From: Escherichia coli 042
GTDB taxonomy: Bacteria; Pseudomonadota; Gammaproteobacteria; Enterobacterales; Enterobacteriaceae
Length of the DNA: 64,000 nucleotides
Strand: one strand, 5' to 3'
NCBI RefSeq assembly: GCF_000027125.1
Contig: NC_017626.1
Shown here: positions 3,550 to 48,101 of the stretch, one piece after another
Layout of the letters: every line of letters begins with the position of its first letter
How positions within the stretch are numbered: position 1 is the first letter of the stretch
Translations under genes and position numbers: made by a program
The notes under the pieces: generated by a model
Seen by the model: only the letters and a program-made list of their open reading frames with translations
Databases searched by the model: none
What the model was told of the DNA's origin: nothing

Positions 3550-7614
<4,065 letters not shown>

Positions 7615-39393: not shown

Positions 39394-40923
39394 TTACGGC
39401 CTTGTAGTAGTAACGGAATTAACAAACCACTGCTGGATATTGCCAATCGCGGAATGCGAGGTATCCAGAATCGGCTGCGGATAGAAGCCCAGCAGTACCA
39501 GCAGCACCACCAGCAACAGGATCATAAACAGCTCACGCAGCGACATCCCTGGCAGTTCCTGGCTGGCAATCTGGCTTTTCGCTTTACCGAAGTAAGCGCG
39601 ATGCAACATCGCCAGCGAATAAACAGATGCAAAGACCAGCCCAAAGGTAGAGATAACGGTAATCACCGGGACAACCTGGAAGCTGCCGAACAGAATCATA
39701 AATTCGCCGACGAAGTTACCGGTGCCAGGCATCCCAAGCGTTGCCACCGCAAAGAACAGCGACAGTGCTGGCAGCCATTTCATCTTGCTCCACAGACCGC
39801 CCATCATGCGCATGTCGCGGGTATGGATACGTTCATAAAGCTGACCGCAGAGAATAAACAGACCCGCTGCCGACAAGCCGTGCGCAATCATCTGGATTAC
39901 CGCGCCCTGGTAGGCCAACTGGCTGCCGGTATAGATAGCAATCAGCACGAAGCCCATGTGGGAAACCGAGGTGTAGGCGATCAGACGTTTGATATCGGTC
40001 TGGGCGAAGGCCATCCACGCACCGTAGAAGATGCCGATAACACCCAGCCACATGGCGATTGGCGCGAACTCTGCCGACGCGTTCGGGAACAGCGGCAGGG
40101 AGAAACGCAGCAGACCATAAGCAGCGGTTTTCAGCAAGATCCCCGCGAGGTCCACGGAACCGGCGGTCGGAGCCTGGGAGTGCGCATCCGGCAGCCAGCC
40201 ATGCAGCGGTACCACCGGCATTTTCACCGCAAACGCGATGAAGAAGCCCAGCATCAGCAAATATTCCACGCCGTTAGACATTGGCGTATTCAGCAGCTCT
40301 TCATAGTTGAAGGTCCAGACGCCAGTCGCATTGTAGTGAACAAAAACCAGCGCCAGGATGGCGATCAACATCACCAGACCACTCGCCTGGGTGTAAATGA
40401 AGAACTTGGTTGCCGCCGTGATACGCGTTTTACCGTCAGAGGCTTTATGCCCCCACAGTGCGATCAGGAAGTACATCGGCACCAGCATCATTTCCCAGAA
40501 GAAGAAGAACAGGAACATGTCGATGGCAAGGAACACGCCGATAACGCCGCCCAGGATCCACATCAGGTTGAGGTGGAAGAAGCCCTGGTATTTTTCGATC
40601 TCTTTCCACGAACAGAGTACCGCCAGCACACCGAGCAGACCGGTCAGCACGACCATCAGCAGCGATAGCCCGTCAATGGCGAGATGGATAGAGATACCAA
40701 AACGCGGGATCCACGGCATGTCGAATTCAGACTGCCACTGCGGAATTCCGGCGGATTGCGTCAGTGAATAACCGCCCTGCAACCACAGTTGCAGCGACAG
40801 CGCCAGCGTCAATCCCATGGTGATCAGCGCGATCCAGCGCGGCACCTTGACGCCAAAGCGTTCGGTCTGCCAGCACAGGAAGCCGCCGATAAAGGGAATT
40901 AATATTAGCCAGGGTAGTAACAT
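39394..40923 (-). CDS. nuoM: NADH:quinone oxidoreductase subunit M
   Basis: 509-aa antiporter-like subunit. Confidence 0.95.
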   Translation of the reverse strand: MLLPWLILIPFIGGFLCWQTERFGVKVPRWIALITMGLTLALSLQLWLQGGYSLTQSAGIPQWQSEFDMPWIPRFGISIHLAIDGLSLLMVVLTGLLGVLAVLCSWKEIEKYQGFFHLNLMWILGGVIGVFLAIDMFLFFFFWEMMLVPMYFLIALWGHKASDGKTRITAATKFFIYTQASGLVMLIAILALVFVHYNATGVWTFNYEELLNTPMSNGVEYLLMLGFFIAFAVKMPVVPLHGWLPDAHSQAPTAGSVDLAGILLKTAAYGLLRFSLPLFPNASAEFAPIAMWLGVIGIFYGAWMAFAQTDIKRLIAYTSVSHMGFVLIAIYTGSQLAYQGAVIQMIAHGLSAAGLFILCGQLYERIHTRDMRMMGGLWSKMKWLPALSLFFAVATLGMPGTGNFVGEFMILFGSFQVVPVITVISTFGLVFASVYSLAMLHRAYFGKAKSQIASQELPGMSLRELFMILLLVVLLVLLGFYPQPILDTSHSAIGNIQQWFVNSVTTTRP

Positions 40924-41013
40924 GGCGATCTTTATTCCTTGTAAAAGTCCCGTCAGGACCGGATTTTCAACGAATTCTCACGACAGAAAATTCTCTTCGG
41001 ATTGTGGTTGTAG

Positions 41014-41050
41014 TGTCGGATGCGCCGCGAAGGCGGCTTATCCGACCTAC
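41014..41050. repeat. REP-like palindromic unit in the nuoL-nuoM intergenic region
   Basis: GTCGGATGCGCCGCGAAGGCGGCTTATCCGACCTAC resembles the REP consensus (GATGCG...CTTATC.G.CCTAC). Confidence 0.6.
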
Positions 41051-41088
41051 GTTCTTATATGCCCAGGGGCAAGCCCACAATCCTTAAC

Positions 41089-42930
41089 TCAACGCAGTAC
41101 CATCAACAGTGCCAGCACCACGACCGCACCGATGCTCATGGATGCCACATACCAGCGCAGATAACCGTTCTCGCTTAACAGCAGACCTTTACCTGCAAAG
41201 CGGGAAAGGACAGCCGGGATGTTCATCATTGAGTTCAGCGGATCGCGTTTCAGCAACCAGGCAATACCCAGGAACGGCTTGACGAACACTTTGTCGTACA
41301 GCCAGTCAAAGCCCCAGGCGTTGTACCACCAGGTGCCCAGCAGACGGCCCGGCGCACTGTTGGCGATGGAGGTCACCAGAGTACGTTTACCCAGCCACAG
41401 CCAGGCTGCCAGCAGAATGCCGACCACCGCGACCACGCCAGAGGTAATTTCCAGGGTCAACATGCTGCCGTGCGCCAGCTCCGTCGTTTGCGGAAGCACG
41501 CCCTGCAGCGGCGGTACAATCAGTGCGCCAACGAAGGTGGAAAGGATCAGCAGCACAATCAGCGGCAGGCTGTGAGTTATCCCTTTCACGGCGTGAGCGT
41601 GAATTTGTTCTTTTCCGTGGAAGACGATGAAAATCATACGGAAGGTGTAGAGCGAGGTCATAAATGCACCGACCAGACCTGCCACCATCAGATTGATATG
41701 TCCATTCGCCATCGCACCCGCGAGGATCTCATCCTTACTGAAGAAGCCCGCAGTGACCAGCGGCAGTGCCGACAGTGCTGCGCCACCCACCAGGAAGCAG
41801 AGATAAACCAGCGGAATAGATTTACGCAGACCGCCCATCTTGAAGATGTTCTGTTCGTGATGGCAGGCCAGAATGACGGAACCGGATGCCAGGAACAGCA
41901 GCGCTTTAAAGAACGCGTGAGTCATCAAGTGGAAAATCGCCGCATCCCATGCCTGCACGCCAAGCGCGAGGAACATGTAGCCAATCTGGCTCATGGTAGA
42001 GTAAGCGAGAACACGTTTGATATCGGTCTGTACCAGCGCGGCAAAACCGGCCAGCAGCAGCGTAACCGCCCCGACAATGCCCACCAAATGCAGAACTTCC
42101 GGGGTCATCAGGAACAGGCCGTGGGTACGGGCGATCAGGTAGACACCTGCGGTTACCATGGTTGCGGCGTGGATCAGCGCGGAGACAGGCGTCGGGCCCG
42201 CCATCGCGTCGGCAAGCCATGTCTGCAACGGCAACTGCGCAGATTTACCGACCGCACCGCCCAGCAGCATCAGCGTCGCCCACATCAGCATGTTATTGCC
42301 GTCAGCAAAGTGCGCTGGTGCCAGTTCCACCATTTCGCGGAAGTTCAGGGTGCCCAGTTCGTTGTAAAGAATGAACAGCGCGAAAGCGAGGAACACGTCA
42401 CCCACACGGGTCACGACGAACGCTTTCATTGCCGCTGCACCATTCTTCGGATCGGTGTAATAGAAACCGATCAGCAGATAGGAGCACAGGCCCACGCCTT
42501 CCCAGCCGAGGTACATCAGCAGCAGGTTGTCGGCAAGCACCAGAACTACCATGCTGGCGATGAACAGGTTGGTGTAAGCGAAGAAGCGAGAGTAGCCCTC
42601 TTCACCGCGCATATACCAGGAGGCGTACATGTGAATAAGGAAACCCACACCAGTGACCACCGAGAGCATGGTCAGCGACAGGCCGTCCAGCACCAGGTTA
42701 AAACCGATGTTAAAGTCGCCTACCGACATCCACGTCCACAGCGGCTGGCTGTATGCCTGCTCACCGTTAGCGAAGAAGTCAACGCCGATAAAGGCAGTTA
42801 CCAGCGCCGCCAGGCCCACAGAGCCAACGCCCACGATCGCCGAGACGTTTTCAGACCAGCGCCCACGGGAGAACGCCAGCAGGACGAAGCCAATCAATGG
42901 CAAAATAATGGTTAAGGCAAGCATGTTCAT
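41089..42930 (-). CDS. nuoL: NADH:quinone oxidoreductase subunit L
   Basis: 613 aa. Confidence 0.95.
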
Positions 42931-48055: not shown

Positions 48056-48101
48056 GCTTCCAGTTTTCTCAGTCAGAGACTGAGCGTTAATCGAAATTCG
48101 G

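Follow-up and report, generated by a model that had tools for sequence, protein, structure and literature searches.

Two palindromic elements in a 64,000-nt stretch of the Escherichia coli 042 chromosome (the window analyzed here) were confirmed as true copies of the known E. coli REP. The first is located in the spacer between nuoL and nuoM and is complete, the second is located between the convergent genes yfbR and yfbS and is degenerate. The explanation that best accounts for both, and which we consider quite likely, is that the nuoL-nuoM element is a y-type REP carried as a passenger within the nuo operon and that the yfbR-yfbS element is a relic derived from REPs which would function as a terminator. 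No other repeat of E. coli is as abundant as the REP, a family described some 40 years ago. Both elements are ordinary members of a long-known family, the yfbR-yfbS locus is already annotated and functionally mapped in K-12, and the confirmation of two more copies adds little knowledge. It provides a useful negative result, as the only large gap of the nuo operon would be explained by a passenger repeat and not by a hidden gene, a promoter or a terminator. Only mildly unexpected is that insertions have recurred in this spacer throughout the Enterobacterales and that it is dimorphic within E. coli.

A comparison of the open reading frames with the K-12 annotation identified the window as an E. 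coli chromosome segment which, between nuoN and pta, is collinear with that of K-12. The genes nuoN to nuoA are located on the minus strand and are followed by lrhA, alaA, yfbR, yfbS, hxpA, yfbU, yfbV, ackA and pta. The nuoL gene (41089-42930, minus strand, 613 aa) ends with a TGA stop codon 38 nt upstream of the REP, and the start codon of nuoM (39394-40923, minus strand, 509 aa) follows 90 nt downstream of it. The intercistronic spacer between the two genes (40924-41088, minus strand) comprises 165 nt, compared to 163 bp in K-12, and the exact 165-bp version was also found in strains such as FDAARGOS_497. It is the largest gap of the nuo operon, followed by the gaps between nuoB and nuoC (~93-105 bp) and between nuoF and nuoG (46 bp). 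Between nuoH and nuoN, the remaining junctions are overlaps or gaps of at most 14 bp, so that the earlier note was right to describe the spacer as the one sizeable gap among the membrane-arm genes.

The nuoL-nuoM element was assigned as a single y-type REP (palindromic unit) at 41014-41050 on the minus strand, based on a feature pattern, its fold, alignment and copy number. Along the plus strand its letters are TGTCGGATGCGCCGCGAAGGCGGCTTATCCGACCTAC, and the sense strand of nuo (41050-41014) reads GTAGGTCGGATAAGCCGCCTTCGCGGCGCATCCGACA. By definition, the REPs of E. coli are imperfect palindromes 30-40 nt in length that carry a conserved GTAG 5' to the foot of the stem, and they are grouped into the types y, z1 and z2 (PMC3333891). 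The element is an imperfect palindrome of 37 nt, within this range, and carries the GTAG at the foot of its stem (GTAGG, 41050-41046, minus strand). The hairpin extends to 41010, where CTAC is paired with GTAG. A pattern built from the defining features of REPs (GTAGGNCNGATAAGN{6,24}CATCNGNC) gave one match in the 64 kb (41015-41050, minus strand), with 0.00 matches expected from shuffles, and the same pattern recovers canonical REPs in K-12 comparison loci. On the mRNA strand, the hairpin has a predicted free energy of -26.2 kcal/mol (z -6.66) and none of 200 shuffled sequences was as stable. The predicted fold contains a 2x2 internal loop of AA and GC (GAU-AA-GCCGC ... GCGGC-GC-AUC). Binding by TnpA-REP requires both the GTAG and this AA/GC stem mismatch (Ton-Hoang et al., 2012, PMC3333891). 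Judged from its letters, the element would be a non-autonomous palindromic repeat of the type recognized by the TnpA-REP/RAYT of E. coli.

In a full-length alignment to K-12 REPs the y type was the best match (score 33; 10.8 ± 1.9 for shuffled sequences), and this score to the K-12 y copies was not matched by any of 500 shuffles. Like other y-type REPs of E. coli (nomenclature of Bachellier and Gilson), the element shows a 37-nt palindrome, the GTAG, an extragenic position, here inside the 165-bp spacer, a high copy number and a GATAAG 5' arm facing a GCGCATC 3' arm, which forms the AA/GC bulge. It differs from the canonical copies by compensatory changes (GGTCGG/CCGACA versus GGCCGG/CCGGCA), i.e., T-A pairs in place of C-G pairs, and its upper stem exceeds that of the aligned canonical K-12 copies by 2 nt. 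Because of these compensatory substitutions and the longer upper stem, consensus strings of the y and z2 types gave no match with up to 3 mismatches. With a 49-nt query centered on the element, related places were found in 5425 of the 5426 complete E. coli genomes, 33 per genome as the median (counted at E ≤ 10, with at least 40 pieces in 198 records), whereas its flanks of 41 nt and 54 nt occur at exactly one place each. The repeated part is therefore the REP core alone. An inverted REP partner was not found in the spacer, which holds one unit only, so that the element is a singleton and not half of a BIME. Singletons account for 84 of the 584 REPs of K-12 (PMC3333891).

The Rfam database contains no general REP family, and naRNA4 (RF02564), which originates from REP325, is its only REP-derived family. 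The nuoL-nuoM element shares REP sequence and hairpin with naRNA4, but scores only 23.2 and 23.1 bits on the two strands (E ~0.045) against a gathering threshold of 59.5 and is thus not a member of this family. In the copy of the K-12 record NC_000913.3 used here, repeat_region features are lacking, also for the match to a canonical REP sequence at 5565-5600, and a missing REP annotation in this record is therefore uninformative. In the accessible part of the supplement of Harris et al. (2026, bioRxiv 10.64898/2026.03.23.713779), neither REP166 or REP167 nor K-12 coordinates near 2393xxx were found. Judged by the order of the numbers, the element (K-12 2393131-2393166) is probably one of these two REPs. 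A literature search found no paper naming nuoL, nuoM and REP together, the RepRanger supplements list neither nuoL nor nuoM, and the “entropy riboswitch” paper names the nuo operon only as a whole. The earlier note had called the unit in the spacer REP-like, and GTAG, AA/GC bulge, y-type alignment and multi-copy core bear this out. The comparison with REP families that it had suggested gave a match at both loci, the y type by alignment in the nuo operon and REP168 of MG1655 between yfbR and yfbS.

The genes yfbR (56745-57344, plus strand, TAA stop codon at 57342-57344) and yfbS (57403-59235, minus strand, TGA stop codon at 57405-57403) converge on a gap of 58 bp, which is nearly filled by a compound palindrome (57348-57400). 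Its core stems GTCGCATC (57360-57367) and GATGCGAC (57383-57390) pair perfectly over 8 bp, and the interval 57358-57397 given in the earlier note spans this core. Including the outer pairs, the fold reaches -31.7 kcal/mol (z -4.7). The sequence is conserved, with at least 95% identity in 5425 of 5426 E. coli genomes, and partial matches were counted at 10 places per genome (median). Of the REPs, it matches the 3' arms only, with GCGTCGCATCAGGC on its plus strand and with GTCGCATCCGGCG on its minus strand, and the 3'-arm motif CGCATCMGGC occurs once per strand. Neither GTAG nor a GATAAG arm is present in the palindrome, GTAGGYCKGATAAG had no match there with up to 2 mismatches, and the AA/GC bulge is absent, the core stem being perfect. 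Applying the criteria of PMC3333891, TnpA-REP should not recognize this element, which lacks both the GTAG and the bulge. It may best be described as a REP-derived relic or chimera, in which two REP 3' arms are paired as a perfect hairpin.

In K-12, REP168 is listed at 2409497-2409515, which corresponds to 57380-57398 of the window and spans 19 nt (supplement of bioRxiv 10.64898/2026.03.23.713779). The same supplement places REP168 inside a 46-nt bidirectional terminator of yfbS:yfbR (K-12 2409473-2409518, window 57356-57401), recorded in log and stationary phase, and shows an overlap with an in vitro Rho/NusG site. The claim that a REP lies between the convergent genes yfbR and yfbS was therefore correct for the locus, which is that of REP168, but the element is not canonical and consists of REP 3' arms only. 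As the annotation covers just 19 nt, naming the whole palindrome a REP goes beyond it. No terminator-like site with a U-tract was found between 57150 and 57600 on either side of the palindrome; termination at this place is thus not of the classic intrinsic type. The K-12 mapping, transferred by sequence identity, suggests that the palindrome would serve as a shared 3'-end and termination hairpin for yfbR and yfbS. The hairpin starts 6 nt past the stop codon of yfbR and 2 nt past that of yfbS. Ribosome stalling by stop-proximal REPs was described to need a REP whose distance to the stop codon is below 16 nt (Liang, Rudd and Deutscher, 2015, as summarized in PMC12306157), and the palindrome resembles such REPs by this distance criterion only.

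The nuoL-nuoM REP lies outside this rule, since its 38 nt from the nuoL stop codon are too distant for stop-proximal stalling. Between 40700 and 41300, neither a terminator-like site nor a sigma-70-like promoter was found, and the REP hairpin is not followed by a U-tract. Direct RNA sequencing detected a full-length nuoABCEFGHIJKLMN transcript of 15.3 kb (PMC11481537). The lifetime of the nuo mRNA is ~4 min for most segments of the 14-kb operon, which leaves room for a deviation at the spacer (PMC4332155). According to 3'-end data, transcripts from nuoG to nuoN end at a terminator after nuoN, and no Rho site or terminator near K-12 2393xxx is entered in the accessible part of the same supplement (bioRxiv 10.64898/2026.03.23.713779). 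The published bidirectional terminator hairpin after nuoN, as given in that supplement, would correspond to about 37880-37910 of the window (K-12 2389998-2390028). Transcript data that are already published thus argue against a strong regulatory step at the nuoL-nuoM spacer. With a full-length transcript and a roughly uniform lifetime of 4 min, the REP is neither a terminator nor a strong stability switch in nuo. Any influence that it has on the NuoL:NuoM/N ratio or on decay intermediates would be modest. The proposal of the earlier note that REPs within operons can modulate mRNA stability and polarity is generally established, but in nuo the full-length transcript and the ~4 min lifetime suggest that such an effect is small (PMC11481537, PMC4332155).

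The REP is expected to be transcribed within the nuoA-N mRNA as a hairpin of -26 kcal/mol, nested in a longer stem. Most likely, it is a tolerated passenger. By analogy with the general behavior of REPs, it might at most act as a passive barrier to 3'-to-5' exonucleases and guard decay intermediates covering nuoA to nuoL. The REP is dispensable, being absent from 13% of the E. coli genomes and from most of the sampled Enterobacterales.

For the analysis of the spacer in other species, one genome per species was scanned for the conserved start of nuoM, which gave 120 loci, and spacers were extracted from 115 of these species. The shortest of these spacers measures 18 nt and the longest 295 nt. 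Spacers of 18-19 nt occur in Yersinia and Providencia, spacers of 27 and 41 nt in several genera, and a common class of 74-79 nt includes many Enterobacter, Citrobacter and Atlantibacter. No REP is present in the spacer of about 89 of the 115 species, with spacers down to 18-27 nt, and 56 species have spacers of at most 119 nt without any repeat. REPs of the GTAG type or pairs of a REP and an inverted REP were found in about 26 species. Their sequences are genus-specific, as in Citrobacter and Klebsiella (e.g., GTAGGCCCGGTAAGCG...CACCGGGCA). C. koseri, Citrobacter R56 and K. spallanzanii carry full pairs of REP and inverted REP where E. coli has its single REP. In the spacers of 32 of the 115 species, an element of ~130-150 nt was identified, an imperfect palindrome centered on GTACTTAAGTAC.

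The 76-nt class shows which part of the spacer is common to the genera. It consists of TTCGTTGAAAATC, a small hairpin and the Shine-Dalgarno sequence of nuoM (AAGGAA, in the window at 40935-40940, minus strand). The small hairpin (GUCCU-GAC-GGGAC, 40947-40959, minus strand) is located ~7 nt upstream of the Shine-Dalgarno sequence. It is conserved between genera, and among 23 distinct sequences 3 of its 4 consensus pairs show compensatory changes. As the REP lies at a site shared by several genera and this conserved core is also seen in the 76-nt class, the REP is part of an accessory insertion zone outside the conserved spacer core. In the last ~20 nt before the ATG of nuoM, two types of ribosome-binding region were observed, AAGGAAT...CGCC and AGGGACA..., which were called ancient. 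Both types are distributed patchily within Citrobacter, Enterobacter, Klebsiella and E. coli, and the GGGACA type is present in Yersinia, Providencia and Hafnia.

The REP is enclosed by an outer inverted repeat which appears in the predicted folds. Its 5' arm reads GGAUUGUGG in the mRNA (41075-41083, minus strand) and its 3' arm CCACAAUCC (40999-41007, minus strand), and both arms are single-copy in E. coli. A further small hairpin was found in the folds between the outer 5' arm and the REP (UGCCCCUGGGCA, 41060-41071, minus strand). In comparison with the full pairs of Citrobacter and Klebsiella, it could represent what is left of a collapsed inverted REP partner. This arrangement allows the reading that the functional unit is not the REP but the whole compound hairpin, i.e., the outer stem (41075-41083/40999-41007) together with the inner palindrome, as a conserved module of RNA processing or stability in which the REP is a replaceable filler. 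A REP or BIME is found at the same place inside the outer helix in E. coli, C. koseri, Citrobacter R56, K. oxytoca, K. spallanzanii, Superficieibacter and others, among them Phytobacter. The sequence of the outer arms differs between genera while their complementarity is kept (GGAUUGUGG/CCACAAUCC, GGAUUGCGGUU/AACCGCAAUCC, GACUGUGGGA/UCCCACAGUC, UUUGAGUGCG/CGCACUCAAA), which hints at a constraint at the RNA level rather than pure neutrality. The helix persists in Citrobacter MGH106 despite the loss of most of the BIME, and E. coli of the K-12 type retains it by means of G-U pairs. However, the outer arms are not cleanly alignable, and complementary flanks can arise without selection, either by “palindrome perfection” through template switching or from a REPIN-like doublet. 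The whole module is also missing in many species (the 76-nt class and shorter spacers) and entirely absent from the second spacer haplotype of E. coli, and we regard this reading as unlikely.

A second possibility is that the REP is a selected regulator, which acts as a partial Rho-dependent attenuator and stabilizes the upstream mRNA, so that expression would step between nuoA-L and nuoMN as with REP325 in yjdMN. Intercistronic REPs of malE-malF and hisJ-hisQ were reportedly recognized as stabilizers by Newbury, Stern and Higgins in 1987-88. Like these and REP325, the nuoL-nuoM element is a REP hairpin between cistrons which is transcribed in the mRNA. The subunits NuoL, NuoM and NuoN are single-copy subunits of one complex, and a step-down between their genes would be without obvious benefit. 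The hairpin is canonical and very stable, and it is kept in 87% of the E. coli genomes. REP325 was described as a dual terminator and stabilizer, and canonical REPs between tandem genes tend to accompany upstream-biased expression genome-wide (Harris et al., 2026, bioRxiv 10.64898/2026.03.23.713779). However, the systems from malE-malF, hisJ-hisQ and REP325 have at least two units and a measurable upstream bias in expression, whereas nuo has a single unit, a near-uniform mRNA lifetime and full-length transcripts (PMC4332155, PMC11481537). For REP325, partial Rho-dependence occurs only with the full array of 12 hairpins, and the accessible supplement entries mentioned above show neither a Rho site nor a terminator near K-12 2393xxx. 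The 13% of E. coli genomes and the majority of related species which do without the REP also speak against such a role. Selection of the REP as a regulator seems quite improbable on this evidence.

Within E. coli, the spacer occurs in two haplotypes. Haplotype A, the REP-bearing form present in the window, was found in 4698 of 5426 complete genomes, and haplotype B, which is 230 nt long and has no REP, in 724. Haplotype B carries a palindromic element of ~150 nt and a different ribosome-binding region (AAGGGACATACTTAGCT). The two forms differ and cannot be aligned over a region which begins directly behind the nuoL stop codon and reaches about nt 27 of nuoM, whereas the flanking coding DNA is ~99% identical between them. 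The spacer of haplotype B is identical to that of Escherichia whittamii over all 230 of 230 nt. A single mosaic was observed in the O157:H7 strain TR01. It has an A/B/A structure, with A flanks which include the first 6 nt of the REP (GTAGGT) and a B core, and may reflect either genuine recombination or an error of the assembly. The view that the TR01 spacer, having kept the GTAGGT, is a typical alternative allele derived from a REP-bearing ancestor was dropped, as TR01 is a one-off mosaic.

The palindromic element of haplotype B belongs to a low-copy dispersed repeat, the imperfect palindrome centered on GTACTTAAGTAC which also occupies the spacer in 32 of the 115 species. Elements of this kind (~110-150 nt) occur at a median of 3 and at up to 6 places per E. 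coli genome. In K-12, 5 places were found for the ~150-nt element, one of them between the pheM leader and pheS, and the element had no match in Rfam. A class named “RSA” was described in K-12 with a length of 150/151 bp and 6 copies (PMC5172473). By size and copy number only, the element may correspond to this class. The spacer could be a long-lived landing pad where unrelated palindromic mobile elements, genus-specific REPs or BIMEs and the ~150-nt element, have inserted repeatedly, and the state with two deeply diverged cassettes in E. coli could be maintained or exchanged, by which the translation of nuoM and nuoN or the processing of their mRNA is tuned. We consider this scenario rather doubtful and retain the passenger REP as the preferred reading. 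The variation of the spacer and the two haplotypes represent a natural experiment on how intercistronic repeats relate to the expression of a stoichiometric membrane complex.

It is very unlikely that both elements act as DNA, as sites for gyrase, IHF, HU or Pol I which organize supercoiling or the nucleoid. BIME-1 and BIME-2 clusters as well as REP325/naRNA4 were suggested to have such roles (summarized in PMC12306157), and the nuoL-nuoM REP shows a weak similarity to naRNA4. However, this similarity of 23 bits is far from the gathering threshold of 59.5, and the REP has no partner and no L linker, which carries the IHF site in the structure of BIMEs (PMC3333891). In addition, no measurable chromosome compaction and no REP-REP contacts were observed (Harris et al., 2026, bioRxiv 10.64898/2026.03.23.713779). 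That both palindromes are chance inverted repeats outside the REP family, as the failure of the y and z2 consensus strings at up to 3 mismatches might suggest, can practically be dismissed given the unique pattern match with 0 expected, the alignment score reached by 0 of 500 shuffles, the tens of related places per genome and the annotation of REP168.

Two further observations concern other parts of the window. The nuoG RNA motif (Rfam RF01748) was identified in the nuoF-nuoG spacer (48057-48099, minus strand), where it scores 50.3 bits, the gathering threshold being 33. It is the only Rfam match in the window which reaches the gathering level. Upstream of nuoN, the plus strand contains two open reading frames of 325 aa and 167 aa (36280-37863), compared to 141 aa and 282 aa for yfbO and yfbP in K-12, and this flank is probably variable between strains.
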